DNA from: Candidatus Omnitrophota bacterium
GTDB lineage: Bacteria; Omnitrophota; Omnitrophia; Omnitrophales; Aquincolibacteriaceae
Reading direction: 5' to 3'
Assembly (NCBI GenBank): GCA_043718225.1
Contig: JAYSWD010000062.1
Coordinates: 1 to 52,071 of the forward strand
Length of the DNA stretch: 52,071 bases
Shown: positions 9,292 through 48,100 of the stretch, piece by piece
How the letters are laid out: every line of letters starts with the position of its first letter
Numbering within the stretch: the stretch's first letter is position 1
The notes under the pieces: model-generated
Told to the model about the DNA's origin: nothing
Databases searched by the model: none
Seen by the model: the letters and a program-made list of their open reading frames with translations, nothing else
Position numbers and translations under genes: made by a program

Positions 9292-9563
9292 ACTGACAAT
9301 TCACCCATAAATGGATACATTGAAAGCCCTAATTTGGATTGGATGCAAGAATCAACGACGACGGCTTGTTCTCTGCAACAAGTCAAGAAGGAGCGACGCA
9401 GCAGACGGCCAAATTCGGGCTTCCCGAAGGGCCGGGCAATTTTGGGCTGCGACCGCATCGTTCGTCTTTGACGTCGTACTGCAACGAAGCCTGCATCATC
9501 TCTCTTTGTCTCGCTCCAAAATCTCTCCGGCCAGTGTATCTATTTATGGGTGAATCGTCAGTT
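9291..9563. repeat. 273-nt element closed by a 28-bp stem joining the atpC stop to the nuoJ start
   Basis: 9291-9318 (AACTGACAATTCACCCATAAATGGATAC) pairs with 9536-9563 (GTATCTATTTATGGGTGAATCGTCAGTT): 26/28 Watson-Crick, one G.U, one A.C. The left arm starts at the last base of the atpC TAA. The right arm ends 1 nt before the nuoJ ATG. Confidence 0.7.
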
Positions 9564-10064
9564 ATGGAATCCCTTTTTTTTTGGATCTTTTCGGTTATTT
9601 CCGTCGCAGGCGCCCTGAGTATCTTATTTGTAACCCGGCCCACCCGCGCGCTTCTTGGCTTGCTTCTATGCATGCTTTCTTTAAGTGTGCTTTATACCTT
9701 ATTACACGCTTACTTTGTCGCCATCGTGCATTTAATCGTCTATGCCGGCGCGGTCATGGTTCTTTTTTTATTCGTAATCATGCTCCAAGGCTTGGGAGCA
9801 ACCACCCTTCCGCTTCTGCAAAGATTCAATAAAAGTCATTTGGCATTGACCCTTCTTTCCGGCGTTATTTTTACAGTTATTTTGACGGCTATTTTTTCCA
9901 ATTCCAAGCTTCCCGCCTTGCAAAATCCGCAGGGCACCGTCGAAAATTTAGGCCGTGTTCTTTTCAGCCGCTATTTACTGCCTTTTGAACTTATTTCTGT
10001 CTTAGTTTTACTCGGTATTTTTGCAGCTGTGACTCTGGCTAAAAACGAAAAGGCTTCGGCATGA
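9564..10064 (+). CDS. nuoJ: NADH-quinone oxidoreductase subunit J
   Basis: MESLFFWIFSVISVAGALSILF... aligns with NuoJ N-termini, and the VYAGAVMVLFLFVIM motif is present. The track ORF (9339) extends upstream through the repeat element. Confidence 0.85.
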   Translation: MESLFFWIFSVISVAGALSILFVTRPTRALLGLLLCMLSLSVLYTLLHAYFVAIVHLIVYAGAVMVLFLFVIMLQGLGATTLPLLQRFNKSHLALTLLSGVIFTVILTAIFSNSKLPALQNPQGTVENLGRVLFSRYLLPFELISVLVLLGIFAAVTLAKNEKASA

Positions 10065-10108
10065 TCTTAAGGAACCAATCCGAAACCATACTTGGAAAGT
10101 GGTCGCTT

Positions 10109-10197
10109 GCTAATGGCCTACGCCTTTGTCATGCTCGTCGTCCATACTTAGCGCAGTATGAACTCCTCGCCTTTCTTGTCTCGGCTCATTATCAATC
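10109..10197 (+). repeat. dispersed spacer module, copy 2 (nuoJ-nuoK spacer)
   Basis: GCTAATGGCCTACGCCTTT... and ...TGTCTCGGCTCATTATCAA match 4000-4090. Confidence 0.5.
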
Positions 10198-10224
10198 CAA
10201 CCCTTTCTCAAGGATGGTCTCAGA

Positions 10225-10536
10225 ATGATTCCTACCCTTTCAGCCGAACACTACTTAGTTTTAGCCGGAATTCTTTTTTCCATCGGGCTTTTCGGGATTT
10301 TACTGCGCCGCAATATTCTTATTATTCTTTTGTGCCTGGAATTGATGCTGAATGCCGCTAATCTGGTTTTGATCACCGCTTCTTCCGTTCACGGTCATAC
10401 AGACGGGCAGATTTTGGCGTTCTTCGTCATGGTCATTGCCGCAGTCGAAGTTACGATCGGGTTGGCAATCGCTGTTTTGCTATTTAAAGAAAAAAACTCC
10501 GTCGATACGGAAGTTATGACAACCCTTAAGGGTTAA
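10225..10536 (+). CDS. nuoK: NADH-quinone oxidoreductase subunit K
   Basis: 103 aa, three TM helices, with the NuoK/ND4L-type sequence LCLELMLNAANL. Confidence 0.88.
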   Translation: MIPTLSAEHYLVLAGILFSIGLFGILLRRNILIILLCLELMLNAANLVLITASSVHGHTDGQILAFFVMVIAAVEVTIGLAIAVLLFKEKNSVDTEVMTTLKG

Positions 10537-10539
10537 AAT

Positions 10540-10638
10540 TTAAAGCTCAAAGCAAAAACCGTAACTTATAGCCTTAAGGCTTTCAGAAAGTTTTAAGTTT
10601 TGAGCTGTGGTTTTGACCTTTGAGTTATAAGCTTTGAG
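10540..10638. repeat. CTCAAAG-word palindromic element
   Basis: Left arm TTTAAAGCTCAAAGCAAAAACCGTAACTTATAGCC. Right arm GTTTTGAGCTGTGGTTTTGACCTTTGAGTTATAAGCTTTGAG, whose reverse complement (CTCAAAGGTCAAAACCACAGCTCAAAAC) nearly matches 19010-19037. Confidence 0.65.
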
Positions 10639-10645
10639 TTATTTT

Positions 10646-12562
10646 ATGTTGAATCTTTGTTGGTATATTTTGGGATTACCGCTCGCGGCCGCGGCAATTA
10701 TTTTTCTGCTCATTATTCCCGCGGAAAAAGCGTCCCACGTAAATAAAAACTTCTTCCGCCTGGCTTCGGCCTGGTTGTCGATTCTTTCGATTGTTTCCGC
10801 TTTTGCTCTCAGTTTAATTCTGCTGCAGAATTTCCGCAGCGCTGAAAATCACAGCGCTGTCTTTGAAACTTCCTTAACATGGATGACTTTGCCGCAGTTT
10901 CGAATTGAGATCGGCTTGCTGTTTAATAACTTGTCCCTTTTGATGCTTCTAATCGTAACGGGCGTTTCATCCGTCGTCGCGATCTTTTCATCCCGGTACA
11001 TGCAGGGCGAAGAAGGCTATTCCCGTTATTTCGCGGCGCTTTCTTTTTTTGCCTTTTCGATGCTGGGCATCGTGCTTTCAAATAATTTGATTCAGCTTTT
11101 CATTTTCTGGGAATTGGTCGGCGTTGCTTCTTATCTTTTGATCGGGTTCTGGTTTGAAAAGCCGTCCGCGAGCCTTGCCTCCAAAAAAGCTTTTTTAACG
11201 ACGCGCATCGGCGATGTCGGCATGATGCTCGGCATATTGCTTTTATTCGGACTGCTAATCAAAAACGACATGGGCACTTTTAATTTTCTTGAACTGGAAA
11301 CCAAACTAAATCAAACCTCATTGCCCGCGGGGTTGTTAACGCTTGCTTGCATCGGTATCTTTTTCGGAGCCATAGGCAAATCAGCGCAGGTGCCTTTGCA
11401 TGTTTGGCTTCCTGACGCGATGGAAGGCCCGACTCCCGCAAGCGCGTTGATTCACGCCGCAACCATGGTCGCGGCGGGCATTTTTATGATCGCTCGGCTT
11501 TTCTTTTTATTTGAAATGAGCCCCGTAACCCTGCAATTGATCGCCTGGACCGGCATTACTACGGCTTTTATCGCCGCGTCGATTGCCGTGGTTCAAAACG
11601 ATATTAAAAAGGTGCTCGCCTACTCCACGCTTTCCCAATTGGGATATATGGTCATGGCATTAGGACTTGGAAGCCCCGAAGCGGGCATGTTTCACTTAAC
11701 AACGCATGCTTTCTTTAAGGCTCTGCTCTTTCTTGGCGCCGGAAGCTTGATTCACGCTTTACATACTCAAGATATATGGGCAATGTCCACACAGTCACAA
11801 CGCAGCGGACTTTTTAGAATCATGCCTATTACCGCGCTTACTTTCCTAATCGGCACCGCGGCGCTGGCGGGCATACCTTATACAAGCGGATTTTTTAGCA
11901 AAGAAGAAATCCTGAGCGCGGCTTCTGCCGGTCCCAAAATCATGTTTGGAATGGCGCTTGCGGTTATTCTGCTTACAGCTTTTTATATGGGCCGTGTGGT
12001 GACAGTGGTTTTCTTTTCGGCGGTTGGGTCGAAGACCCAGAGGCATGACGATACACCGCATGAAGATAATCTGCTTGTGACTTTGCCGCTTATTATCCTG
12101 GCTGTTTTTTCTTTGATCGCGGGGTATCTTCCCTTTAAATCATTTTTAGAAAACCACGCCACTCATTCCGCAGGCCATCCGTCCTGGCTCGCTGCTGTTT
12201 CGGTGGGATTGGCCTGCTTCGGACTCCTTTTAAGTTTTATTTTTTACCGTAAGAAAACCACGGAAACGCATTTGCCGGTTATGTTGGGTTTTGTGAAGCT
12301 GCTCAAAGAAAAATATTTCTTTGACCGTTTTTATGACTGGCTGATTATTCATATTCAGGAGAACATCGCCCGCGCGGCGGATACTTTTGACCGTGTCGTT
12401 ATTGACCGGGGCGGAAATCAAGGGCTGGGCAGCCTCACGCAAGTCCTCGGTAAAACCGCGCGCAAACTGCAAAACGGTTGGATTCAAAGTTATGCGCTTG
12501 TTTTTGTGATCGGTTTTACGGCGCTTGTTATTTATCTTATTTTCAATGGTGCGCGCGTATGA
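10646..12562 (+). CDS. nuoL: NADH-quinone oxidoreductase subunit L
   Basis: About 638 aa, antiporter-like subunit (FWELVGVASYLLIGFW, SAQVPLHVWLPDAMEGPTP). First ATG at 10646. The track ORF opens at a TTG at 10634, inside the repeat. Confidence 0.92.
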   Translation: MLNLCWYILGLPLAAAAIIFLLIIPAEKASHVNKNFFRLASAWLSILSIVSAFALSLILLQNFRSAENHSAVFETSLTWMTLPQFRIEIGLLFNNLSLLMLLIVTGVSSVVAIFSSRYMQGEEGYSRYFAALSFFAFSMLGIVLSNNLIQLFIFWELVGVASYLLIGFWFEKPSASLASKKAFLTTRIGDVGMMLGILLLFGLLIKNDMGTFNFLELETKLNQTSLPAGLLTLACIGIFFGAIGKSAQVPLHVWLPDAMEGPTPASALIHAATMVAAGIFMIARLFFLFEMSPVTLQLIAWTGITTAFIAASIAVVQNDIKKVLAYSTLSQLGYMVMALGLGSPEAGMFHLTTHAFFKALLFLGAGSLIHALHTQDIWAMSTQSQRSGLFRIMPITALTFLIGTAALAGIPYTSGFFSKEEILSAASAGPKIMFGMALAVILLTAFYMGRVVTVVFFSAVGSKTQRHDDTPHEDNLLVTLPLIILAVFSLIAGYLPFKSFLENHATHSAGHPSWLAAVSVGLACFGLLLSFIFYRKKTTETHLPVMLGFVKLLKEKYFFDRFYDWLIIHIQENIARAADTFDRVVIDRGGNQGLGSLTQVLGKTARKLQNGWIQSYALVFVIGFTALVIYLIFNGARV

Positions 12563-14073
12563 TTCTCGCATTACCTTTCATTCCTTATTTGGCGGCATTG
12601 CTAATTCTTTTTATGCCCGCAGCTCATGGAAAATGGCTGCGCCCGCTTGCGATCGGCGCAACCGGCTTGTGTTTATTAATCGTGCTTTTTCTGACTCAAA
12701 ATTTTGATCGCGCGTTTCAAGGCTTTCAATTTGTTCATAGCTGGGATTGCTTCGCTGAAATGGGCATTCGCTATCAAGTCGGGCTTGACGGCATTAATCT
12801 CATTTTTTGTTTATTGCTCGCGTTTGTGGCTTTCGCCGGCGCTTTTATCGCGGGAAAAACTAAAGACCGCCTTAAAGAATACCTTTTCTATTATCTGCTT
12901 TTGACCGGCAGCATGTTCGCCGTTTTCACCGTGCTGAATGTTTTTTTTCTGTATGTTTTTTATGAAATGACTTTGATTCCGGTTTTCGCGATGATTGGGC
13001 TGCATCGTTTTGCCTCTGAGCCTTCGGCTCAACCGGGCGGTCTTCCTTCCAAGCAAGAGGCAGGGGCAATGAAGCTCGCACTTTATATGACCGCGGGCGC
13101 GATGCTAGGACTTTTCGCAATATTCACTCTCTATAATATGCTCGGGCCCGATTTTCTGGATCTTACAAAATCAAAAGCTCTCGCGGCTTCTCACGCGGCA
13201 TTGTTGACGCCTGAAACTCAGAAATGGCTGGCCGCGCTTTTGATCGTAGGCTTTGGCATCATGACATCACTTTGGCCTTTCCACAGCTGGTCGCCTTCCG
13301 CTTATTCAGCCGCTCCCGCTTCGCTTTCGATGGTGCATGCCGGCGTTAAAATAGGTCCCTATTTTTTGATTCGCATCGCACTTGTCTATTTACCGTTAGG
13401 GTTTCAGTTTTGGGCGCCGACGCTGGCAATACTTGCAACCATCGGCCTCATCTATGCCGGCTTCGCTGCCATTCGCCAAAAGAATCTCAATACCATGGCG
13501 GCTTTTTCAAGCATCAGCCATATGGGCTATGTTTTTCTGGCTTTCGCCGCCATGAATCCAACCGCGCTTTCAGCCGGAATTTTGCTTATTTTCGCACATG
13601 GCATCATGACCGCCTGCTTGTTTGGATTGATCGGACATTTAACCGCACAGACCGGCACCGACGGCATTCATGATTTCGGCGGCCTCGGAAAAACGCTGCC
13701 TTTCTTTTCGGTTTGTTTCATGCTGACTTGCATGGCTTCAGCGGGAATTCCCGGTTTCGCTAATTTTCCGGCCGAACTTTTGGTTTTTATCAGTGCCTGG
13801 AAAACTTTTCCTGCCGCGGTTATTTTTGGAGTCTTGGGAGTTTTGATTACCGCCATTTATATGATTCGCGCGGTACAAGCGCTCTGTTTTGGCGTGGCGA
13901 CTCGTTTATCCTCTGCGCCTTCGGCGCAACCGGGAAAAGAATTACGCGACATGATTGGCTTATGGGATAAAGCGCCTTTTCTGGTTCTTTTAGCGATACT
14001 TTTCTTCTTCGGATTTTTTCCATCCGCGCTTTTGTCCATTATTCAACCGGCAGTCGCGAGGCTTTTCATATGA
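12559..14073 (+). CDS. nuoM: NADH-quinone oxidoreductase subunit M
   Basis: Antiporter-like subunit. The ATG at 12559 overlaps the nuoL stop (ATGA). The track ORF extension from 12478 overlaps nuoL. Confidence 0.9.
   Translation: MILALPFIPYLAALLILFMPAAHGKWLRPLAIGATGLCLLIVLFLTQNFDRAFQGFQFVHSWDCFAEMGIRYQVGLDGINLIFCLLLAFVAFAGAFIAGKTKDRLKEYLFYYLLLTGSMFAVFTVLNVFFLYVFYEMTLIPVFAMIGLHRFASEPSAQPGGLPSKQEAGAMKLALYMTAGAMLGLFAIFTLYNMLGPDFLDLTKSKALAASHAALLTPETQKWLAALLIVGFGIMTSLWPFHSWSPSAYSAAPASLSMVHAGVKIGPYFLIRIALVYLPLGFQFWAPTLAILATIGLIYAGFAAIRQKNLNTMAAFSSISHMGYVFLAFAAMNPTALSAGILLIFAHGIMTACLFGLIGHLTAQTGTDGIHDFGGLGKTLPFFSVCFMLTCMASAGIPGFANFPAELLVFISAWKTFPAAVIFGVLGVLITAIYMIRAVQALCFGVATRLSSAPSAQPGKELRDMIGLWDKAPFLVLLAILFFFGFFPSALLSIIQPAVARLFI
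13014..13037 (+). repeat. 24-nt hairpin element in frame in nuoM (copy 1)
   Basis: CTCTGAGCCTTCGGCTCAACCGGG, translated SEPSAQPG. The stem GAGCC/GGCTC shows compensatory changes relative to GCGCC/GGCGC at 13911. Confidence 0.7.
13911..13934 (+). repeat. 24-nt hairpin element in frame in nuoM (copy 2)
   Basis: CTCTGCGCCTTCGGCGCAACCGGG, translated SAPSAQPG. Confidence 0.7.
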
Positions 14074-15509
14074 ACTTAGGCCTCTCTTATTTTATTCCGG
14101 ACTTAATCAGCGTTGGACTGCTGGCTTATTTTCTCTTTGAGGCGGTTTTAACCGCCAAGAAAGACCGCCCTATTTTTAATCAATTAGCGGTCGGCACCGT
14201 GATTTTGGCCGCCGCGCTTTTCTTTTGCTCGCAAAAGTTCGGTACGGGCTTCGGCGGCATGGTTTCCGCCGACCCATTTGCTTTTTATTTCAAAGTTTTT
14301 TTCACGGCTGTTTTCTTTGTTATTACTTTTATGTGCCGCGAGCTGTTTGCGAAAACTTCCGCAAAGCAGCAGGAGTTCGGCCTTATTCTTTGGTGTCCGT
14401 TGGTTGGGCTTTACTTTTTAGCTTCCGCTTCGCATTTGCTGGTGCTCTTTATCGCACTTGAAATACTGACTATGGCACTGTATATGATGGCGACCTACGG
14501 CCGACACTTCTCAGCGGCCCACACCCCGGGCATGTCCTCTGTCGAAGCCGGCCTTAAATATTTACTGCTGGGCTCGATTGCTTCCGGATTTACGATTTTC
14601 GGAATCGCCTTGCTTTACATGCAAACCGGCGCGCTTTCGTTTACGGAAATCGCGGCCGCTAAACAAGTTTTATTCGGCAGCCGGCTGGGGCTGCTTGCTC
14701 TGCTTTTTATTTTCGCGGGTCTGGGATTCAAAATCGCCGTTTTCCCTTTTCAACTTTGGGTTCCGGATGTTTATCAGGGCGCTCCCGCTCCCGTTTCCGC
14801 ATTCATGTCGGTGGCTTCCAAAGCCGCGGGATTTTTACTGATCATCCGTTTTTTCAACCTTCTTTTGGGGCCGTTGGACGAACACTGGAAAATGGCCTTA
14901 GCCGTCATGTCGATCTTAAGTTTGCTTTACGGAAACCTCGGCGCTCTCGCGCAAACTAGTTTTAAACGTCTTATGGGTTACTCAAGCATCGGCCACGCGG
15001 GTTATCTTTTGCTCGCTGTCGCGTCGGGAACCGACATGAGCGGCGCGGCTATTCTTTATTATTTTACGGGTTACGCGGCAAGCACTTTGGCTGTCTTCTA
15101 CGTTATTACTTTGGTGGAGAAAGCCGCCGGCTCAGATTCGACTCAAAACTTTGAAGGCCTTTCGAAAACATCCCCTTTCCTTTCAACGGTGCTTTTCATC
15201 GCCCTGCTGTCTCTGGCGGGAATTCCGCCGCTGGCCGGTTTTATGGGTAAATTTTGGATTTTATTTTTTGGTTTGCAGGCCGGGCTGAATTGGCTCGTCA
15301 TAGCCGGCTTGGCCATGGTAGTTGTGGGGCTTTATTATTATCTTTCGATTGCGGTTAAAATGATTTTCCGCGAACCCCGTTTTAAAACAGAAATTCCGGT
15401 TTCGATTTCATCCCGGCTGATTCTTATCGCACTCACATTTCTATCGCTGAGCATCGGGTTGCTGCAGGCTCCGCTTATGCGCATTGCCGCAACGGCCATT
15501 CGCTCTTAA
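14070..15509 (+). CDS. nuoN: NADH-quinone oxidoreductase subunit N
   Basis: 479 aa, antiporter-like subunit. Its start overlaps the nuoM stop (ATGA). It follows nuoM as in canonical nuo operons. Confidence 0.88.
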   Translation: MNLGLSYFIPDLISVGLLAYFLFEAVLTAKKDRPIFNQLAVGTVILAAALFFCSQKFGTGFGGMVSADPFAFYFKVFFTAVFFVITFMCRELFAKTSAKQQEFGLILWCPLVGLYFLASASHLLVLFIALEILTMALYMMATYGRHFSAAHTPGMSSVEAGLKYLLLGSIASGFTIFGIALLYMQTGALSFTEIAAAKQVLFGSRLGLLALLFIFAGLGFKIAVFPFQLWVPDVYQGAPAPVSAFMSVASKAAGFLLIIRFFNLLLGPLDEHWKMALAVMSILSLLYGNLGALAQTSFKRLMGYSSIGHAGYLLLAVASGTDMSGAAILYYFTGYAASTLAVFYVITLVEKAAGSDSTQNFEGLSKTSPFLSTVLFIALLSLAGIPPLAGFMGKFWILFFGLQAGLNWLVIAGLAMVVVGLYYYLSIAVKMIFREPRFKTEIPVSISSRLILIALTFLSLSIGLLQAPLMRIAATAIRS

Positions 15510-20414: not shown

Positions 20415-20459
20415 CTAGGTCTCCTGTCTCTAGTCTCTGGTCTTTAGTCTCCCGACAGG
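20415..20459. repeat. GTCTC-word repeat arm (right flank), overlapping the nuoI 3' end
   Basis: CTAGGTCTCCTGTCTCTAGTCTCTGGTCTTTAGTCTCCCGACAGG. Encodes the last residues (..LSGD) and the TAA stop (20444-20446) of nuoI. Confidence 0.65.
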
Positions 20460-21049
20460 ACTTTTTGAAGGTCTTTCTTGGCGGCAATCTGGGAATATAA
20501 AGGGTTGGGATTGAGTAATTCCACAATATCAAGCTTCATGCTTTCGCGCGTATATGACGCCATATCGAGAATCTGCGTATCCATACGAATCGCGTCTTCC
20601 GGACAGGCTTCAACGCAAAAGCCGCAGAAAACGCATTTCCCGAGATCAATATCAAAACTTTTGGGCCGCTTTTCAATATTTACATCGGGATGCTCTTCGG
20701 CCACGATTGTAATGCACTTTGCGGGGCAAACTGTTTCGCACATCATGCAGGCAACACAGCGCGGTGAATTGTCCGCGCGCTTGGTTAAGCGGTGGCGCGT
20801 ACGCAAACGCGAAGGCGGCTTGCGCTTTTCTTCGGGATACATAATCGTCACACCCGCACGGATCAATTTAAAAAGCCCGATTGCGTGCATACTGTGGAAA
20901 AAAAGATTTTTCCAGAAATGTCCGCCTGTAATCATCACTCCGCGAATGATTTCAGGAATATAAATCTGCTGCCAGAAGTTGAGTACAGGCCGGTCAACGA
21001 CCTTGGTTTTAATCGCCATAAGATTGGGAATTGTAGCACAACTCGCCAA
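20444..21049 (-). CDS. nuoI: NADH-quinone oxidoreductase subunit I (2x[4Fe-4S])
   Basis: CVACMMCETVCP and CVFCGFCVEACP ferredoxin motifs, plus the NuoI-type N-terminus (TIMYPEEKR.PPSRLR.RH.L). The start may be the ATG at 21019. Confidence 0.88.
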   Translation of the reverse strand: MASCATIPNLMAIKTKVVDRPVLNFWQQIYIPEIIRGVMITGGHFWKNLFFHSMHAIGLFKLIRAGVTIMYPEEKRKPPSRLRTRHRLTKRADNSPRCVACMMCETVCPAKCITIVAEEHPDVNIEKRPKSFDIDLGKCVFCGFCVEACPEDAIRMDTQILDMASYTRESMKLDIVELLNPNPLYSQIAAKKDLQKVLSGD

Positions 21050-30100: not shown

Positions 30101-33100
30101 CAGGCAAACCTAAGGCGCGGCCTTTGATGATCGCGGCACCGGTTAAAAGCGTCGCGAGCGATCCGTGACGGGCCCTTTTATTTTTGCTTTGCGACATGAC
30201 GGCGGGTTGCAAACTTGTAAAGCCAGCGTATTCTTTCAAGTCAAATCCATACAGCGCCTCACCCGGCTGCGTTAGTTGCAAAACTTCTTTTAAATTTACA
30301 CCGCTCAACAATGGCAGAAATTTGAGAATTTGCTCTTCGCTCACCCCCCGAATTTCGGAGCGGGCTTTGGAGCGGGCAAGGCGCAATTTTTTTCCCTCAT
30401 CACGGACACCCGGCATCTTCCCTTCAATTTCTTCCGGCCCATGAATGCTAACGAAATGAACTTTTGTATCCAAAGTCAACTTCGCAGATCGATTTTTTGA
30501 AAACAACGCGACTGTACTGTCCCGGTTTTGACGCCGCCATTTTATAAACGCTTTCCAAGTATCAAATTTCAAAAAAGGAATGGTGGGAAACTGCCGGCCC
30601 AGCGCGGGGGTTAACAAACTTCTTTTTTTTTCGTCAGGTCCGATCACCGCCATGTATTGAAAACCCGGAGCGGCTTCGGGGCCTTCAATAAAAAGGGCTT
30701 TCCTATCATCCGGTTTTAACATTTCGCGGAAATCAAGCCAGCGAATATCGCCTGTTTTTTCGAAATCTTGTAAGACATAGGTGAGGTTTTCGTCATATTT
30801 CCCTTTTTTGAAAGCCGCTTGAGAAATGGCCTCTAAAATACTTTTCTTAAAAAAGCCCACGCCAGAATGGACATGCGCCGCAACCGGAGATTTTTTATTT
30901 TGACTATCAACAATTTTTCCGACTGCGCTTCCTGGTTCGCTTTCATGATCCGGTTGAACCGCCTCGTCCAGCTCCAAATGCATGTAAATGGTCATCGGAA
31001 CATAGACTTCCCCGTCAATTTCAACCTCCCCCTGGTGAAAATAAACGACCGACTGAGCCATGTTATCCCTAAAAATCCAATGCACTTTACCTTTGCCAAA
31101 GAGGGCCGGTACTGTGGTATCAATTGGAACGGGCCGGCGATTGCCCTGCCTGTCTTGCAAATAGACGACATCTGTCGAAGTATGCCAATGTCCGTTGTAA
31201 GATTTTCTGCGCGTTTTTAAGTCACCCCAAAATGTTTTTTCATCTCCATATCCCGTTCCGGGGCCAATCACGATTTGTTCATCGCGGCCCAAGCTGGCCA
31301 GCATTTGACGTAAGCCTGCCGCCAGTGTCTCCGCATCAAAAGCGCTGTTGTTTAACTGCGGCAAAACTTTCGCATGTTCTTCCGCTGTGAGTAAATATTT
31401 AGTCGTTTCCAATTGGGGGTCGGCGGGCTCATGCCAGCCTCCGTCATGCCATTCAAATCCATGGCGCGCCGCGGCGCGATACAAACCGGTATTTTCTTTT
31501 GCTAAAATTGCCGGGTCATTTTTAAATTTGTACTTTTTGCGGTTCTCAAGTGCATAAGAGACATCTTTAATTGATTCAAAAAAGTCCGGGTTTAAAACGC
31601 TGTTAGCCGCAAGAAAGTCGCCTATTTCTTTCGCTTCCAATCGGCGGTATAAGCCGCTTGATATCACGGCCCGGCGTTTCTTATTAATGCTTTTGGTTAA
31701 ATCGTTAAGCGAGCCTGATTTCTTCGTTTTCTTTTTAAAATCTAATAGGGCTCTGCGAATCGAGTTTCCGAAATAGGGGTGGTTCAAAAGAGACTGCTTT
31801 GCTTGCGACTCCTCGGAAGCGGGTCGCTGAAAAAGATCATCAATAGCGGCTATCGCTTTAGGCGGATTGCGTTTCGCCAATGCTTTTGTAAGCCGGGAAC
31901 CATATCCGACTTCAATGGCAAGACCGCTTGATTGACGCACAACATCCAACGCCCGCTCCGATGCGAGTGTTTCGTAAAAGCCATTGCCAAGTTCACGGCG
32001 AATTTTGTCCGCGTCATCTAAAACTTCCGTTGAGTTAATCGAAAACGGAATCAGCGGAATTTTAGGATTTTCTATTTTAAGTCCGTGCGTCGCCTCAAGA
32101 ATCGCGGCATGAATTTTTTCATTATAAGAATGATGCGGATTTTGATAGGCTGACGGATCAAGCTGAATGGCGCTTAATCGTACGCCGGCAGGAATACCTT
32201 CGGCTCTGAGTTCTTTCCCCAGCCCCTTAATCATTGCGCTAAAAGAATCTTCTTTCCCCTGCGCAACACGCACCACAATTTGAAAATACTCGTCGCCTTC
32301 GTCCACAGTTATTTGCGGCTCATCGCCTGAATAAGCCTTGAGTTTTTCGATTATTTTTTTACGAATTGACGGTTCGCCCAAACCACTGCCAATGACGCGC
32401 ACATACCGCAATTGTTTTCCATATCTCCTTTGAGATAAATAAAACAACCTTGATATACGCAAAACATACTGCGCCATATCTTCAAAGGAAACCGCATCCG
32501 AAGCGGCCAAAGCGGCAAATTGCCCCATGCTTTTTCCGTAAAAATGCGCCGTCTTAAATCGTTTGCCCAGTTTATTCTTCAAAACCAAATAAAGCGCGTA
32601 TTCATACACGAAACCCGAATAAGTCAATTGAACCGTATTCGGGTGAGCCGGATCAAATCCTTCCAAATAAAGATAGCTCATATTTTTTGCGCCTGAAATT
32701 TTTCCTAAAATTTTAAGAGCCTGTTCGTAAATGGGCTTCGCGATAGGATGCTGCGCGAGTATTTTGGATTTTTCTTGAAAAGCATCCGGTTTTGTCAAAT
32801 TTTCATAGGTATCAGAAAACATAACCGTTGTAGGTTTATTGAGCTGTCTCTGAAGCTCGGCAATATTACTCACCCGCATTTCGGAGCGGATGTCGGGGCG
32901 GATAACTTGACCACCTTGAGGGCGGGTGCTAAACTTGCCTGCATGGACACTTTGATTCAAACTCATATCACGAGCGACCCCGAAATCTGCCATGGCAAGC
33001 CCTGTTTCCGTGGAACCCGCATTTTGGTTTCGGAGACGTTGGAAATTCTCGAGGCCGGAGAAACTCCCGAGGCTATTTTGAAAAGCTTCCCCTCTTTGTC

Positions 33101-36100
33101 GATGGATTCGATTAGGGCTGCGCTTCATTTCGCGGCGCAGTTGACGAATCGCGGAGACTCTTTGAGCCTTGCCTCCTAAATTTCGTTTTCTCGCCGACGA
33201 AAATATCCGAATTGAAGTCATCCGCGCGCTTTCCATAACCCACGATGTCATCACTGTTCCCAAAGGAATTAAAAATGGTGCCGTTGTCCAGCTTGCTAAA
33301 TTAGAAGGCCGCATTCTCATCACTCGCGACCGTGATTTCTCGGAAGGCAACCGATATAATTTCTTTAATACACCCGGCTTCGTATGGCTCAAAGTCCATC
33401 CACCCACTGTCAGCGCTTTGCTCCAAGCAATGGACCTACTCATTGGCCAACTCACCCCTGAAAAGGTCGCGAACAAATTGGTTACATTGGAAGTTGATAA
33501 ATTCGTAATTATTCCCGACTCAGACTGAACATGATCAGCTGAAGACTGCTGACTCTGTTCGCTGTCGTTAGTCATTAGTCGTTGGGCATTAGTCTGTATC
33601 TGTCTCCGCATTTCGGAGCGTCGCGAAGACAATCGGGTAAGTTGCATTTGATGCGGCGAAAGCCTGCCCCAAAGCGACGCAGTCACTACGGTAAATAACT
33701 CTGTAACCCCTGTAGCAAATGCGGAAATGTTTCCAGCAAATCCAAAATACGTTGCCGTGACATACAAGCCACTCCACAATGACGTGCCCCAGAAGCCAAA
33801 ATCATTAAATGTTAATTTATAAATAGACACGCACACAACCGCCCCAAAAAATCCTGTTAAAATAAAATCCCGGGCGATTTTTTTGAGAGAAACTTCGCTT
33901 TTGTTATAGCGATCATGAAATAAAGCCGGCGCATAGGCAAAATTTAGAAAATCACGGGTTTCACTTTCTAATTTCGCGACACTTTTTTTCGACAACTTTC
34001 TGCTCAAAACTCCCGCCGAACCGGCAAAATAAACAAAGCTGACGCCCTGTTTATGATGAATATAGACGCCATAGGGCTCGCCCGGAATAGCAGCATAGGT
34101 CGAAGCATGCATACCAATGACATTATAAAAACGGTGGTTTTGGACGATCACATCTGTGTTTTTAGATTCAAATTTCAAGTGCAGTCGGCCAAAACGATTT
34201 AGCCATGCGACCTTTTTAGATAATTTTTCAGGCGTGCTGAGCTGTATGATCGGCCTGGCGGCATTGATGAGGGTGTTTAACCTCCATTCAAAATTATCAC
34301 CAAACTTTTCATTGATCCGAACCGCTACCGCCAAAAGAGCGACATATCCTAAAATATTGCCCATCAGTGAAAATAAATTGGAATACGCGAACCAAGCCAT
34401 CGCATAAAAGACACCTACAAAAACAACATTTTTAAAAAATAATCGAATACCTTTCGCATAATTCAGCCGCATTTCGGAGCGGGCATAGATGTTTTGGACG
34501 CGCGTAAAAAGTTTGGCGACAAATCCACGCTGCGCGACGTTACCCTCGACAACATCGGTCTCTCCGCTTAGCACCCAGTTCGTCTCTCGTCTCGAGTCTC
34601 CGGTCTCAGATTCTTCTTTTACCCGCGTTTCGGAGCGTGACGGGTTAAGAATATGAGAAATTTTTCGGCCTAGCTCCGCATCCTGGCCTTCAAGCTGGCC
34701 GATCACAAACCAATTGGATAAAAAAGCTTGATCAGGGGGCAGGTCACTGTGGGCGGTAATCCCGGCCCCCAAATAAATTGCGGGCGTTAACAGGGGCGCC
34801 ATTAACATATTTCCTAATACATCACTTGGTTCATCAGCATACATGGATGTTAGCAAACCATTCTCTAAAAAATTAATTTTTGATAATGCCGCATGCACCG
34901 ACGCGTCACTATAAATTATTTCGGGCTCAGGCTGCCAATCTTCTCTGCCCGCCAATTGCTCACCGGTAAATCCATCCCAAATCTTTGGCTGATCTTCAAT
35001 ATGCATTCCATCAGGCCCTTCAACAATCGGAGACGCAAAAAGCGGATTTTGAGATTGTTTGCTTTTAACGAGTATATAAATAAATTTGCCGGGGTTTTGG
35101 CGCGACCTGGCAAGCAAAATACCCAACGGTCCATAGCCATCAAAGGGGCGAATGGCATCTCGGATTTCCTTTTTTTGCTTTTCAGTCAAAGGTGGCTTCG
35201 AAAGAGGTTCATACCATTTTTGAGAAGGCACTTTGCGTAAAGCGGATAGACTTAAAATCATTAAAAATAAACTCAGCCCCGTAATTAAAAATGTTGCATA
35301 CGAATAAGTCCCACGCAAGTAAGCAATGCCAGTGAGTAAAAGCATTGCTAAAGAAATTATGAGTGAGCCAAAGGGAGAATAGATCCCTTGCTTCCGGAAT
35401 TCTGATCGCGTCTCAGACGCAGGAAGAATGAGAGCCGCGGGTTCTGCCTGCTGCAATAAATCAAATTGCTGCAGGGCATTCATTAACCCTTGGAATAAGC
35501 TTGCTTCTTTTTTTTCTTCGGCGCTTAACGCTTCTATTTGCTGCCGCAAAGCACGGATTTTTTCTTCAACCTGGCGCTGAGCTTCTAAATCAGCTTTATA
35601 ATCTTCATAATCGACGCGGCCATGCAAATTTTCGATCATTTGATTTTGATAATAATCCCACCACCATTGCTGTTCGGAAATCGAAGCTTTGTCGAGCGAC
35701 TGCTTTGCCTCAACCTCGTTTTTTTGTTCAGCAATATGTTCACGTGTTGCAACCTCCAGCGCTCTCTGGTTATTGTTATTTGAGCTAAGACCAATTGCCT
35801 CAAGATTCGCATGACGGCGTATGTGATCTAACTGTTTTACGGTTTCATCAGACAAGGACCCTACCCAACTCTCGATTCGTGCTAACCTTGGAAGAGCTGC
35901 TTGTAATAAGTGATCAAACGAACTGATTTGAAAGACTCCGCGATCAGCAAATGGGGTAGCAAAAAGGGTGGGCAGGCCTTCGGTTGTTTTTCCGAAAAAC
36001 AAATCTTTAAAATAAACTGGCCAAGCGCGCAGCGGCATTTGACTGCGAAGCCATGCTGCCGCGCTGTGGATTGCCGTACCGTTCTTTCTCAACCAAGCTT

Positions 36101-42100: not shown

Positions 42101-45100
42101 CTGCGGCTTCTCCCGCGGCAACGATCAGAATCCCCAAAAAAACGGTTTTGTGGAATTTTTCTTTTAACCTATTTTTTTCGTCGCTTGTATTTATATCTCT
42201 CATTTCGGAACGGGGGCTCGTAAACTCCGGATCATTCGCGCGGTTAGGAATGAAATTTTTAATTCTGTGCAGCAATTGGCCATATTCTTTGCGCGCATGA
42301 TCATCGTAAGAATATTCAAGGTCCATTTGGTGATACATATCCGCAAGTCCTGTTTCAGTTAAACCGGGCACGAGCAGCAACATTTCTTCAAAAGTTGTCT
42401 TCCTTACAAAAAAATCAATGAACCATGCGCGGTTTTCTGCGGCAAATGCATTCAATAAAATTCGGTCCCAAGCCGCGGGCATTGCCTGTCCGTTGCTTTC
42501 AAGCGGGTGTAGCAAGTTCTCAAAAACCCAGGGAATACTTGGTCTAATATAGTTAACATTTTCTGTCCGGCTGGCCGTTTCAATTTCACGAACAGCCTTA
42601 AGAAGAGCCGGACGGTGCTCAACAACAAAATTCTGCAATGGATATAATGATCGAAAGGATTTAAGAGACGGCTCATTTCGCCCATAGGGCCCGACAACGA
42701 TTCCGTCATGCCAGCCCGGATGGGCCCAGTAATACAGAGAGCCCGCTAAGTAACTGGTTAAGCCAACTTTCAAACTGACAAGCAATTCTTCTTGGTCTTT
42801 CTGCGGAACATTCGAATCAAACTTGCCCGTTTCAAGCGTGCGGATAGCCAATGTCAAACTGCGGCGCGGGAAAAAATCGGCCCATTCTTCCTTATACGGG
42901 CCTTCCATCGTCAAACTCTGCACGTGCATGCCAAGTAAAAAAAGCGTAAATGCGGCCATGCGGTATTGATATTCACCGGGCAATTGAATGCCGCGTCCCG
43001 CGAGACGCATTTCTGTTTTTAACTCTGCACCTGTTACAGCCTGATTCGTCGCCAGCTGCATCAGAAGCGTCAACGATAAACCCCATTTTCTTTGCGAAAA
43101 ACGTTGATTAAATTGCGCTACTATTGTTTCGATTTTCTTTAAATCCTGCAAATCGGGATTTGCGCTCGCAAGTACAGCGGTTGCAATCGCCATAAAAAAA
43201 TTCATCCATGCGCGCTCAGCAACAGTCGATGTCTCCCCTTTTATTCCTGATTCCATCTTGTGTTTAAAGGCGGACCAATGCTTGTCAAAAAAGCTCAATT
43301 CGTCTTGATGAAACTTGCCGCGAATTTGGTCGACAATACCATTCAATGCCTGGGCGTCAACTTGACCAATCGCCATTTGGCGTTCCGCCTGTTCAGCCCA
43401 TCTTTGCAAATCTGCAGAAAATATTTTTGCTTCCCGCATTTCGGAGCGGGCAAGACGCAATGCTCGGCCGGTCTGACGCACAGTTTTTATCACATTTTTT
43501 TCAATGGGCGGGCGGCCGGTTTTTTCCTTAGACTCGAGATTTAAAGAAAAGCGGTAGACATTTTCTGCAAAACCAACAATGGCGGCGGTCGAAAAAAGCG
43601 CAACGGGACCGTGTATATTTTTTTCATGCCACTCTAGGAATTTCTCCGGAGTTAAAAATCGATAAACATTAATCCCGGGAAAACGGCGCCCCAGCCTGAC
43701 AAGCGTATCCTTAGCGATATCTTCATCAGGATGTACCACCACCAAATGTTCAAAGCCGGGCACGGCCGCATCGCCTTCAATGAACATGGCCTGCCTATTC
43801 GCTTTGCTTAAAAGTTCGCGAAAATCAAACCAGCGAATGTTCCCTGTCTTTTCAAATGGCTGTAATTCTTTAAAAAAATCACCGTTTCTCTTGGCCGCTG
43901 GAAGCGTTTTGATAATGCTTTTCTCAACTAACCCAACCGCAAAATGCACATGCGCCGCGACGGGTGATTTTGGATTCCGGCTTTTTGCGATTTTCCCAAC
44001 CATACTTCCCGCTTGAATTTTACGGCCTATTTTGATTTGCTGATCCAAGTCCAAATGCATATAGAAAGTCATGGGAACGTACGTTTTTCCTCCAAAACTA
44101 ATTTCTGCCGGATGCAAAAATGCGGCTGTTTGGCGCATGTTGTCATCGAAAATCCAATAAGCTACGCCTTCACCAAAAAATGCGGGAACGGACGTGCCGA
44201 TCAAAATATTGCGCCGATTCGCATGTGTATCCTGTAAATAAACGAGATCGGTCGCTTCATGCCGGTTGCCGCCAAAAGATTCTTGGCGTAGTTTCCCCTG
44301 CCCCCAATGTGTCCTGAGATCGGCATAACCCATGCCGCGGCCAATTACGAATTTTTCATTTCGACCCAGACGATTCAGCATTTGCCGCAGCCTCTCCGCA
44401 AATCTCGCCGGTTCAAACCCCTGGCTTATTAATTGCTGCTTAATTTTGGAATGCTCAGCCGGTGTCAATAAATACGCGGGCCATGACTCCGAACCATCAG
44501 CGCGGGCAACAGATGGTTGATCCCGCATTTCGGAGTGATTATTTTCAACTTCCCAAAAAATATTTTCTGAATGATTCCTGTCATAATCACCTTGGAACCG
44601 GCGACCGCTATAAGCATCCTTCCGGATTGGGAAAAATTTATCGATGTGATGAAGAATCGTTTTTTCTTCCATGTAAGGGCGCATATCGGCAAGTAAATAA
44701 GCTCGACCTTCTTGCAGCAATTCTTTTGATTTAGCCAGCCATTCGCGCGGATTGCCAAGCGGGTCTGTGCTTAAATCAATCATCGTCACAAGATCAAATG
44801 AATGCGGCGCAAGATTGTTTTGTGTTAAATCAAGCTTCCCAATTTCAGCGTGAATAACGGGGTAGAGCAAAGGAGCAATTCCTTTGGCTTCTAATTGGTC
44901 ATTTAAATTTTTTCTGGCCATGCTTATGGAACGCGTTAAGGCTGCATCGCCATCAACAAAAACTACATCTTTCCCCATTAAATATAAAAAATGGGGCAGC
45001 CATTTTGAGCCGTTACCGGCCACCAGCACTCGCTGAACAGGCCGCTGTGAAATTTCTTCCGCAATGATTTTTGTCCGGTCAAGTTCATCTCTAAGCTGAT

Positions 45101-48100
45101 CCAGATTTAGCCGGTTGACTGACCTAATTTCTGAAAATAAATCGTAAACTTCCTGCGGTGTTAAATCTCTGCGCAGTTCGGAGCGTTGAAACAACTGACC
45201 CTTCCCAACCGCGTAGGTTGAACCTACGCGGTTATTCGAGGTAGCAAGCGCCCGCATTTCGGAGCGTGCAAGCTTTTCCAGCGAGGGACGAAGCCATACG
45301 AGTCCACGTTCCAGCGTTGTTCGAACTGCGTGAATTTCCTGGTAATAATTTTCAAAAGCGGCGCGAACCTCGGGCGTAAATGCTTCACGACTTATCGCGG
45401 AGTACTTTTCCTGTTCCTTGGCGATTCGTTGTAAGAAGAAATCAATTTGATCGGTTCCAGTAGAAGGTGGCCGCAGCTTTTCTACCCAGCCTTCAACCAT
45501 TTTAATTTCTGTAATTGTCGGCTGCTCCCCATCGTCACTCTTCCCATCTAACATCTGTAATACGGTCGTTGCCATTTTTTGTCTGCTCGATTGACTTTCC
45601 AACGCTAACACCTTCGCCGCAACGTAAGCTAAGGTTTGATTGCTGTGAGTACGAAAAAATTGTTCCAAACTGCTTCTGAAGTCTGCTGATTGAGCACTAA
45701 GTGCTCGCATCAAAACCTCAAATGCTTTTGACATATGGCTACTTAAAGACGGTACAAACATTTGCCAAAGCTTAACGGTTAAATCGTCCGAAAGAATTTG
45801 CGTGCGCTCGGCTGATTTCAAGGCGCTTTCAAAAATTTGGATGTCGCCTGAAAAATAGGGGCGTAAGAATCCTTTAGGCTTTTCATAGAATCGTTTTTTG
45901 AATAATTTCTGCGCCACCTCACCCGTCACCTCCGGGACCAACAACTCAGAAAGTTCCTTTTCAAGCTCTCTCTGTATTTCGAAATCATGAAACCACTTCT
46001 TGACTGCCCCAACCCATTCCCACACCCTTTCCCACCCCCGCATTTCGGAGCGAACCTTAACCAAAGGCGGTGTCTGAATATTGGGATCTCCCTCCAGCTC
46101 AATCGTATTGCTGTCCAGCCATAAAACACGTCCGATTTCCTGCATAGGCTCCATTTTAAAAATCTTTCCATCATCGGTTATTCTTAATGTCATACCCAAA
46201 TTAAGATTCTGCGGAATGGCAGTCTCCGGAGCCGTTTCGCTGATTTTTTCGACCTGATATAAACCGTCTCTCTGATTTAAAACCCGCAGGCTAATATATG
46301 CCTGCGCGCTCCTGTCAGGAGTCACCATTAAAACCGAGCCCTGTTCTGGTTTACGGGGATCCAAAAATGGTCCCCGTGCAGACCATTCTTCAAATGGCTG
46401 CTTAACCGCTTTGAGAGAAGAGCCGACTTTTAAATCTGAAAGCCATCGGGACAGAGCTCTAATCAATGAAAAATTTCCGGTCTCACCGACAAAAAACCGT
46501 GCATGCTCGGTTTGCGCCTCCCATATCAGCCAATTTAAAATGGTTAATCCAACCGCTTGCCCCTGATATGTTTTAAAACTTTCTTCTGATGCGCCGCCAA
46601 GCGGATGAAAACCATGAACAATTTGGTAGCCTTTTTTACCGTCTGGAAAAATATTCCTTATAAAAGCAACGGACCCCGTTTTTTTATTTTCGATAAAAAC
46701 ATCAGCGTGATAAAAATCATAGGTCCCGTATTTCTCGTCCATCCCCTTTTCTGAAAATTCGACCGCGAGCCGAACAGATGGGCCGCCGTTTTTTAAGTTT
46801 TTTAATTCGATTTGACGCACTTTAACTTTTTTGGGCCATTTTTTAAAAAAACCTTTCCGAGATTCGGAACGAGCTTTCACGAATGAATTGCGAATAGCCG
46901 CTGGTGGCTTGCGAGAAACCATTGGGGACAGTGCTGAAACAGCTTGGTACCCTTTGATTTCAGCACGCCAAGACTGTGGCTCAAACGGATGCGGTTCAGC
47001 GGGACTCATCGCTCGCAAATGCGACGTCGCGGTCATGAGCTTCAAATAATTCTCGCGCCCTTTGATTTGGGCAATTCGAGGCTGGATACGGACGTAGGAA
47101 ATATTATTCTGTTTGAGCAGTTCGCCCAAACCCGCAGAGTGAAAACCTCCGGTGATGATCGCCGCCTTTTCGATTTTTTCTTTTTTAATCCAGGCGAGCG
47201 TGTTATTAAACATCATCTCATCTCGTTCTTCAGCTGTTGTGTAAAATTCAACCGCCTTCTCGCAGACAACCTTAACGCTCGCGGGCCACGAACCACGAGC
47301 CACGTTAACGTCCATGCTCTGCCGTGGCCCGTGGTCCGTGGTCCGTGGAACGAGCTGTTGCCACTCATCCTTAGAAAGTTCAAGACGCAACAATTTCCGG
47401 AGCAAAAGATATTCGCGGTATTTTTGAATGAGTTTTTTCTCATCCGGAGTTTGCGCCAATTTTTCAATCAGCTTGTCTTCGAGGTTTTTAATTTCTTTGA
47501 TCAAAGCGGGGGCGTCCAATTCCTGTGTAAGAATCTGCTTCCCCCACTCCTTGGAAAGCACGGGATAATCTTTGAACTTAAAACCTTTCGGCGATGCCCG
47601 CTCATAAAAATTTTCAAAAAACTGACGGACATCTCCGCGTTCCACGGGCCACGGACCACGAGCCACGGAGAGAACGTCTTTGGACAATCCTTTTTGACCC
47701 AACCATTCGCCCAACCGCTTTGTTTCTATTTCTATATTCGTGTTTCGTGGCTCGTGGCCCGTGGCTCGATCGTAAGATTTCAACTTTTGAAATCTGACGA
47801 GCATGGGCCAATCGTATTGTTCGCGTGCATCGCCCAAGTCTAGATTTAAAGATTTGCGCGCATGGCTTGCGAGCGACTCGATATGACGGGCATAATCTGT
47901 TTGAACTTCTTCCTGAAAACTCCATTGCCGAAAATAAGCGGCAAGCTCTGGATTTAAAACCTGCGAAGCTTTCGTCAAAAGCCCGGACTTCATTTCATTC
48001 AAGAAAGCGTTGGATTTTTCCTTCGCGCTTATCACAGCACGAAATTGTTCGAGATTTTTTTTGTAAAGATCGAGATCTTCGATTCCATAGCCCTCAACGC

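Follow-up and report, generated by a model that had tools for sequence, protein, structure and literature searches.

What does a complete toxin-antitoxin (TA) pair do inside a gene that runs in the opposite direction, and how does that gene stay readable across it? The question is raised by contig JAYSWD010000062.1 of the Candidatus Omnitrophota bacterium assembly GCA_043718225.1, all 52,071 nt of which were analyzed and are referred to below as the window. A giant open reading frame (ORF) on its minus strand contains 24 [RH]SExR motifs, all in frame, which delimit about 25 modules; opposite one of these, module 16, the plus strand encodes a DUF433 antitoxin-type protein followed by a DUF5615 PIN-like toxin-type protein (coordinates in Table 1). 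The explanation that we favor, and consider probable on the sequence evidence presented below, is that this is an intact, independently promoted type II TA cassette (DUF433, then DUF5615), which lies reversed inside a translated host ORF and persists in dispensable segments of it.

The DUF433/DUF5615 pair and the frame that crosses it

Both small genes had been assigned to their families in an earlier note made from the letters alone, and the profile searches confirmed this with full-length matches: the DUF433 protein aligns with positions 1–56 of the 56 of Pfam PF04255 (E 8.5e-22, 77.2 bits, cut-off 23.6), and the DUF5615 protein with positions 2–108 of the 110 of PF18480 (E 9.9e-14, 51.6 bits, cut-off 23.8). 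The genes lie on one strand, antitoxin first, and overlap by 11 nt. The DUF433 sequence also matches a solved DUF433 protein (2GA1 in the PDB, E 5.5e-4) and VapBC49 from M. tuberculosis, and residues D10, D54, D56 and F57 of the toxin are invariant in 12 aligned sequences, nested and free-standing. A candidate sigma-70-like promoter ends 7 nt before the DUF433 start codon. Equivalent consensus matches precede DUF433 in all five nested loci studied in detail, i.e. the window and the loci L003–L006, which comprise two further giant ORFs and two inteins; the other four read TTGATA-17-TAAGAT, TTGACA-17-TAAACT, TTGACA-17-TATGCT and TTGATT-17-TATATT, and at least three of the five have a TG in front of the -10 element. 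The window and L003 share the 7-nt spacing and a GTGCTAA core; in L004–L006 the site is further upstream. The nested cassette thus looks independently expressed, and since every sequence-level feature of a type II TA pair that was tested for was found, the segment is by these signs an intact pair. Neither of the two window proteins is on record as a called gene, and a look-up of the protein P0001 likewise found no such record.

The frame of the giant ORF is codon-aligned with DUF433 and, as the earlier note had stated, reads through the antisense of the pair with 0 stops, the remaining two antisense frames having 20 and 10; about 25 and about 18 host codons of module 16 fall outside the TA genes. 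The probability of an open frame was estimated by redrawing synonymous codons from local usage, with both proteins kept and the 54-nt and 77-nt flanks shuffled. It amounts to 3.5e-4 with the codon usage of the flanking genes and 5e-5 with that of the giant ORF (mean of 7–8 stops expected), and to 1.4e-3 over the coding span alone; overall, about 6–8 stops are expected. The codon-permutation test that had been proposed as a check therefore puts the open frame beyond chance (P = 5e-5 to 1.4e-3).

The codon choices that keep the frame open were recounted and agree with those originally reported. DUF433 avoids TTA, CTA and TCA: its Leu codons are TTG (seven), CTT (two) and CTC (one), and its Ser codons do not include TCA, while TTA is indeed common elsewhere in the window (18–25% of Leu codons). 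TTG is one transition away from TTA, the antisense of which is TAA. In DUF5615, which is one base off the giant frame, C precedes 5/5 CAN codons and A precedes the single TAT; in other window genes CAN follows T in 39%, G in 30%, A in 18% and C in 14% of cases. Use of NNC|CAN instead of NNT|CAN gives the host TGG (Trp) where T would give a TGA stop, and both this choice and that of TTG for TTA are silent for the TA proteins. The same signature extends to all five nested loci, with C before 25/25 CAN codons and A or G before 8/8 TAY codons, compared with T 11, C 10, G 8 and A 6 before CAN in free-standing pairs.

The delimiters on either side of module 16 are exact copies of a 15-nt motif; their positions had been given as 32875 and 33607, one base too high. 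A word repeat reported at 33564-33606 is real, but it is weak, of period 7, and according to Tandem Repeats Finder stops short of the delimiter (Table 1); it sits between the toxin stop codon and the delimiter, and L003 is without it. Within DUF433, at 33017-33035 (+), the sequence CCGCATTT-TGG-TTTCGGAG resembles a copy of the delimiter 15-mer into which 6 nt have been inserted. The conserved residues R-I-L-V-S-E of DUF433 are encoded there, in a register other than that of the RSEMR reading, and the DUF433 gene of L003 lacks the sequence; the resemblance may be coincidental or may be left over from recombination with a delimiter.

Recurrence in giant ORFs and inteins

An exhaustive HMMER search of 1.84 billion representative proteins with the host-frame peptide revealed 37 relatives of this antisense peptide, including very long proteins in which the match lies deep inside: P0002 (4,276 aa), P0003 (7,742 aa), P0011 (5,930 aa), P0017 (5,093 aa), P0020 (4,870 aa), P0027 (6,089 aa) and P0026 (3,387 aa). 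Homologs of DUF433 and DUF5615 lie opposite the called host ORF in 8/8 distinct loci with DNA; they are present in L003–L006, L015, L016 and L018, while L017 is a second contig with the same gene as L016. In L003–L006 both proteins are full-length and score above the Pfam curated cut-offs. The frame free of stops is the DUF433-aligned one in 5/5 of the loci studied in detail (6–18 stops occur in the two remaining antisense frames), with resampled probabilities of 0.023 in L003, 0.017 in L004, 0.097 in L005 and 0.00015 in L006. As a control, six free-standing plasmid pairs (GC content 0.34–0.67) are interrupted in all 18 antisense frames, by 3–15 stops each, and the open antisense frame is therefore a property of the nested members and not of the DUF433/DUF5615 family. 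The earlier suggestion that selection keeps the giant frame open is borne out by this recurrence: the same arrangement and the same frame are found in four further loci, and free-standing pairs are never open. The nested toxins score 68–132 bits among themselves, in intein and giant-ORF hosts alike, and 14–43 bits against free-standing ones; they form a distinct sub-lineage. The window and L003 even have the same junction between the two genes (..CCTTGCCTCCTAA.., with the 11-nt overlap).

The hosts are of two kinds. In 5/9 matches scanned (P0006, P0028, P0038, P0014 and P0012) the Pfam Intein_splicing domain spans the insert, and in P0035 only the C-terminal part of an intein was matched, next to the insert. 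The canonical intein blocks (Cys..DTL, TxxH, THNF, and AHN followed by Thr) flank the insert, which places the cassette, as far as these blocks tell, in the slot of the homing endonuclease. In five giant ORFs (the window, P0002, P0003, P0020 and P0017) the insert lies between two consecutive delimiters of the lineage's own type. The delimiter occurs 11 times in P0003 ([SK]ELR), 10 times in P0017 ([ag]SPLA), 12 times in P0020 (gARLA) and 9 times in P0026 ([ag]ARLA), with spacings in these four of tens to several hundred residues, and the series suggests that giant ORFs of this class generally mark their junctions with a signal specific to the lineage. The proposal that motif-bounded slots accept cassettes thus stands in a modified form, in which the insert lies between consecutive delimiters.

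Comparison of the loci also indicates which strand carries the protein. Between the window and L003, the differences per codon position 1/2/3 of the TA genes are 0.36/0.20/0.61 for DUF433 and 0.41/0.28/0.56 for DUF5615, and four other locus pairs exhibit the same order (3 > 1 > 2). Selection on the host frame, which is codon-aligned with DUF433, would predict the opposite, namely that TA position 1, which is host position 3, varies most. The TA proteins of the window and L003 are 53–59% identical and the host-frame peptides 40%. The peptide of module 16 has no Pfam match and is a compositional outlier (Ser+Arg 25% versus 12–16% in other modules, net charge +22), in agreement with its initial description as Ser/Arg-rich and unlike a protein, and AlphaFold2 with an 18-sequence alignment gave no confident fold (pLDDT, the predicted local distance difference test, 38; pTM, the predicted template modeling score, 0.15). 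The codon-position pattern, the identity of the TA proteins, the invariant acidic residues and the oddity of the peptide together indicate purifying selection on the TA proteins, with the host frame constrained mainly to stay open; the host-frame peptide looks like filler.

The insert had also been described as a foreign cassette. It is not a recent arrival, because its GC content is near that of the host and its nearest relative is diverged (53–59% amino acid identity) and already resides inside an RSEMR-type giant gene.

Other searches were less productive. A tblastn search of plasmids with the toxin gave no match, and that with the antitoxin did (it is the source of the controls). Word-indexed protein searches with host modules 15–17 and with the 18-sequence alignment of the antisense peptide gave none, although the exhaustive search had found 37 relatives with the peptide, a discrepancy that we ascribe to the tool; metagenome scans with the toxin and with an alignment of module 5 also returned nothing. 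Pfam has no match to 20 other antisense ORFs in the giant ORFs of the window and of L002, a related metagenome-assembled genome (MAG) described below, which leaves the TA module as the only recognizable antisense passenger in these two. Just upstream of the antisense-TA ORFs in L015 and L016 are further TA-like pairs (HepT with a nucleotidyltransferase, DUF3368 with UPF0175) and an NYN-domain gene, and P0009 (L016) appears to hold two copies of DUF433.

Table 1. Features of the window (nucleotide positions) and inserts in other giant ORFs (residue positions)
Feature	Location	Strand	Description
Giant host ORF	21102-48674	-	9,190 codons, TTG start, hydrophobic signal-peptide-like N-terminus
Module 16 of giant ORF	32889-33620	-	aa 5019-5262, stop-free antisense of the TA cassette
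Opening delimiter of module 16 (RSEMR)	33606-33620	-	aa 5019-5023, CGCTCCGAAATGCGG, exact copy, in frame
Closing delimiter of module 16 (RSEMR)	32874-32888	-	aa 5263-5267, opens module 17, exact copy, in frame
Candidate sigma-70-like promoter	32907-32935	+	TTGACC-17 nt-(TG)TAAACT, consensus match, inside module 16
DUF433 antitoxin-type gene	32943-33179	+	78 aa, ATG start, codon-aligned with giant frame
DUF5615 PIN-like toxin-type gene	33169-33528	+	119 aa, TTG start, one base off giant frame
7-nt tandem repeat (GTCATTA)	33564-33594	.	4.4 copies, 70% matches, weak (Tandem Repeats Finder)
Insert in P0002	aa 2278-2472		delimiter RSEMR; flanking delimiters at aa 2261 and 2491
Insert in P0003	aa 3709-3898		delimiter [SK]ELR; flanking delimiters at aa 3692 and 3929
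Insert in P0020	aa 747-921		delimiter gARLA; flanking delimiters at aa 728 and 962
Insert in P0017	aa 2183-2330		delimiter [ag]SPLA; flanking delimiters at aa 2124 and 2386
Insert in P0026 (L006:4001-14164)	aa 689-900		delimiter [ag]ARLA; none upstream, aa 909 downstream

Why a cassette might live inside a translated gene

Members of the nested sub-lineage keep the DUF433-aligned antisense frame stop-free, which would let the host ribosome read straight through. In both host contexts the stretch of polypeptide seems to be dispensable for the mature host protein: inteins remove themselves by splicing, and a module between delimiters is probably set free when the chain is cleaved at these. If the segment is discarded after translation, a meaningless Ser/Arg-rich peptide would be tolerated there, and the site would offer the cassette a safe harbor. 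Only the reverse orientation would allow a separately expressed pair with its own stop codons to avoid truncating the host, as the TA stop codons would be read in antisense as Leu or Ser. The cassette would most likely persist as an addiction module, in that cells which delete the TA genes together with neighboring modules or the intein would be poisoned; such addiction could also stabilize a mosaic gene prone to recombination and deletion, a role like that proposed for TA cassettes in integrons. That these cassettes form a lineage specialized for living inside translated genes, colonizing intein cores and delimiter-bounded modules, is a real possibility, though we would stop short of calling it probable.

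Several observations weigh against this explanation. The relatives were found via called proteins, so that only open frames could be recovered and the sample is subject to ascertainment bias. In P0026 (L006) a delimiter is present on the downstream side of the insert only, and in L015 and L016 the antisense-TA ORF (L015:3001-3672, 223 aa; L016:3001-5178, 725 aa) is a separate call that abuts a long ORF (>1,280 aa), overlapping its start by 8–11 nt, and is not clearly internal. No protease family was matched by Pfam in the giant ORF at E < 0.01. The AlphaFold2 model of the toxin, built from two sequences only, is weak (pLDDT 50, pTM 0.43; order of secondary structures beta-alpha-beta-alpha-beta-beta-alpha), and Foldseek returned no match to it at E <= 0.001. 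Finally, C before 25/25 CAN codons exceeds what stop avoidance needs, as A or G would also serve; the host always has Trp and never Cys at these sites, and the host peptide may therefore carry some extra constraint.

Among the alternatives, the pair might mainly regulate the host gene, its de-repression under stress either throttling transcription of more distal parts of the giant gene or producing antisense RNA. As a rule the TA complex represses its own promoter, and a conserved promoter-like site is directed opposite to the host gene in 5/5 loci, with the cassette placed mid-gene in the giant ORFs. However, a gene-specific role is less obvious for a cassette that also occurs in inteins of unrelated host proteins, and its position in the host gene ranges widely, from aa 689 to aa 5019. 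As the main role, regulation seems unlikely to us; as a role added to the addiction proposed above it is compatible, and the suggestion, already made in the earlier note, that the pair stabilizes or regulates the giant gene is plausible.

Or perhaps the pair is a mobility device, in which the PIN-like nuclease with its DNA-binding partner DUF433 cuts empty alleles, promotes copying of the intein or module and serves as a free-standing substitute for a homing endonuclease, encoded on the opposite strand? In inteins the cassette is found exactly where the homing endonuclease normally sits, and module 16 is the only module common to two otherwise unrelated RSEMR-type giant ORFs (the only one of the window with detectable similarity in the L003 giant ORF), which fits horizontal movement. 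On the other hand, DUF5615 and DUF433 are classed in Pfam and in plasmid annotations as type II TA-like PIN systems and not as site-specific DNA endonucleases, evidence of a target site was not found, and the lengths of the cassette flanks differ among loci. We regard this role as improbable; both head-on regulation and a homing-like nuclease are weaker explanations than addiction.

A reversal of the favored assignment, in which the host-frame peptide is a functional domain of giant proteins and inteins and the DUF433/DUF5615 genes are a decaying relic or by-product, finds some encouragement in the positions that relatives of the peptide retain (GGW, KSLS, PFL.PLGT, FSSARNR) and in the exclusive C described above, which hints at a constraint on the host frame. 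It is nevertheless very improbable: substitutions follow the codon positions of the TA genes, the reverse of the host-frame prediction for DUF433, the TA proteins are better conserved than the host peptide, full-length Pfam matches with intact predicted catalytic residues are found in all loci together with a conserved promoter-like site, and the peptide itself is of odd composition and without a confident fold.

The simplest alternative, that the antisense frame of an inserted or accidental TA pair merely lacks stops and no selection is involved, can appeal to the rise of P(open) with GC content, up to the value for L005, and to the existence of long antisense open stretches such as that of 301 codons at 46938-47840 (+). 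The latter, in module 0 and codon-aligned with the giant frame, is unusually long for its GC content and has no Pfam match; it is not open in L002 and so is probably due to chance or composition. For the TA pair, the low probability in the window, the bias before CAN codons, and above all the recurrence of the same open frame in four more diverged loci against 0/18 free-standing antisense frames refute chance for practical purposes. A chimeric join of a TA segment at the repeated 15-nt motif, for which one could cite the exact repeats on both sides (with 7 more copies in the window) and the failure to find another assembly of exactly this region, has a negligible probability, since a chimeric join would give neither an in-frame, stop-free reading nor the codon signature, and the nested arrangement occurs in independent ENA, NCBI and Logan assemblies.

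The giant ORF, related systems and implications

The only genome relative of the window that was found is L002, a MAG labeled Candidatus Omnitrophota (contig JAYTHE010000029.1), whose giant ORF (L002:3287-21052) holds 17 RSExR motifs. The two giant ORFs have just three modules in common, 0 (57% identity), 4 (73%) and 5 (91%), and the order of modules 4 and 5 is swapped between them, with a delimiter at each junction. These comparisons make the giant ORF, on present sequences, a mosaic of modules joined by RSEMR, and uphold the idea of motif-bounded slots, in that modules are permuted at the motif junctions. No TA module was found within the 5,922 codons of the L002 giant ORF examined. Module 5 (43449-44537, minus strand) and the C-terminal part of module 17 (30363-31424, minus strand) of the window are paralogous (44% identity over 358 aa), both terminate at a delimiter and neither has a Pfam match; they are weakly similar to part of the L006 giant ORF, whose product has a precomputed Peptidase_M23 match. 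Module 0 (47300-48450, minus strand), near the N-terminus, contains VARG[SP]WP three times (VARGSWPVE, VARGPWPVE, VARGSWPAS), and a looser copy, VARADGSESWPAY, is present at the start of module 5.

The delimiters themselves are selected as peptides. Although 19/24 of the giant-ORF motifs match the 15-mer CCGCATTTCGGAGCG (plus strand) with <=2 mismatches (0.35 expected by chance) and their codons are biased in the window (TCC in 21/24 motifs versus 16% of Ser codons overall, CGC in 19/24 versus 28% overall usage), the synonymous positions of RSEMR vary freely in L003, which argues for selection on the peptide; the nucleotide identity of the window delimiters more likely reflects recombination among junctions. 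For the same reason a delimiter acting purely at the DNA level was rejected. An internal start at the ATG of the motif was also rejected, as gARLA, SPLA and [SK]ELR have no Met and there is no ribosome-binding site. By eye, the inverted repeat within the 15-nt in-frame motif is merely 3 bp.

The only Pfam matches in the giant ORF are MBL and beta-CASP, and neither Hint nor Intein_splicing is matched in module 16 or in the whole ORF. NADH dehydrogenase (complex I) genes adjoin the giant gene in three different genomes: in the window (nuoJ/L/M/N-like genes at 9339-15509 (+) and a 4Fe-4S nuoI-like gene at 20444-21049 (-), directly downstream of the giant gene), in L003 (nuoB/C/D-like genes downstream, L003:13907-15894) and on the contig of P0020 (nuoA/B/C-like genes on both sides). 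Rfam identified a tRNA and nothing else over the whole window.

Free-standing pairs of DUF433 (COG2442) and DUF5615 (COG4634-type) on plasmids of cyanobacteria, Thermus and Leptospira share with the nested ones the two Pfam domains, the order with the antitoxin first, the overlapping or abutting genes and the PIN-like acidic residues. They differ in lying between genes with all antisense frames closed, whereas nested pairs lie inside ORFs with one frame open, and most have a 4-nt ATGA overlap, whereas nested genes are offset by +1 frame. As in inteins with a homing endonuclease, the nested cassette is a selfish passenger between the N- and C-terminal splicing regions that is spliced away, but it consists of two opposite-strand genes with their own candidate promoter instead of an in-frame domain, and module 16 of the window, unlike inteins, has no Hint or intein blocks.

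An analogy can be drawn with the TA cassettes of sedentary chromosomal integrons (PMC13108822). Integron and giant ORF are both arrays of interchangeable units with a short repeated site at each boundary. The TA units carry their own promoter, and a role in guarding the array against loss has been proposed for them. Unlike those of integrons, the units of the giant ORF are in one reading frame and co-translated, and a 5-residue in-frame peptide takes the place of the attC hairpin at their boundaries; scanning of ten flanking ORFs gave no integrase, though attC and IntI were not searched for. The resemblance is functional only.

The giant "multi-enzyme" proteins of Omnitrophota are likewise encoded by very long ORFs of mixed content, and the closest relative of the window ORF is in an Omnitrophota MAG; unlike them, the window ORF has almost no Pfam content, and with 9,190 aa it is below the 10-kaa and 30-kaa (thousand amino acids) cut-offs given in passages of 10.1101/2023.11.21.568195 and 10.64898/2026.06.07.730766. 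Post-translational cleavage of Omnitrophota giant proteins into several products is proposed in a passage of the former (bioRxiv), and short delimiter motifs are not described in the passages concerned of either. The words "antisense", "polyprotein" and "toxin-antitoxin" are absent from the texts of both, and "linker" from that of the latter. One feature of polyproteins is present here, in that evolutionary modules are bounded by a short motif that recurs in frame, as seen in the swap relative to L002 and in the paralogous modules. A literature search, which did not cover subscription journals, returned no description of a TA pair in antisense orientation within an intein or a giant gene; within that scope the arrangement is unreported, and its components (a TA module, an intein passenger) are of known kinds.

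The locus represents a clean and recurring natural case of long dual coding, with about 190 codons read on both strands and kept across deep divergence, in which it is clear which strand carries the protein constraint and which must merely stay open. The arrangement suggests that selfish TA modules occupy a new niche and that inteins can carry a new type of passenger. If the cassettes do form a lineage specialized for translated genes, the presence of the cassette would be a natural marker of discarded protein segments, and addiction modules, and not homing endonucleases alone, could maintain inteins. The delimiter-bounded inserts would then also provide evidence, the first at the level of sequence, that giant ORFs of the Omnitrophota type are polyproteins cleaved at lineage-specific motifs, i.e. 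RSEMR, [SK]ELR, gARLA or [ag]SPLA. For annotation, the locus is a warning that gene callers hide real genes beneath giant ORFs. For giant bacterial genes, it provides a handle on whether they make one protein or are processed, as a nonsense module bounded by delimiters predicts cleavage.

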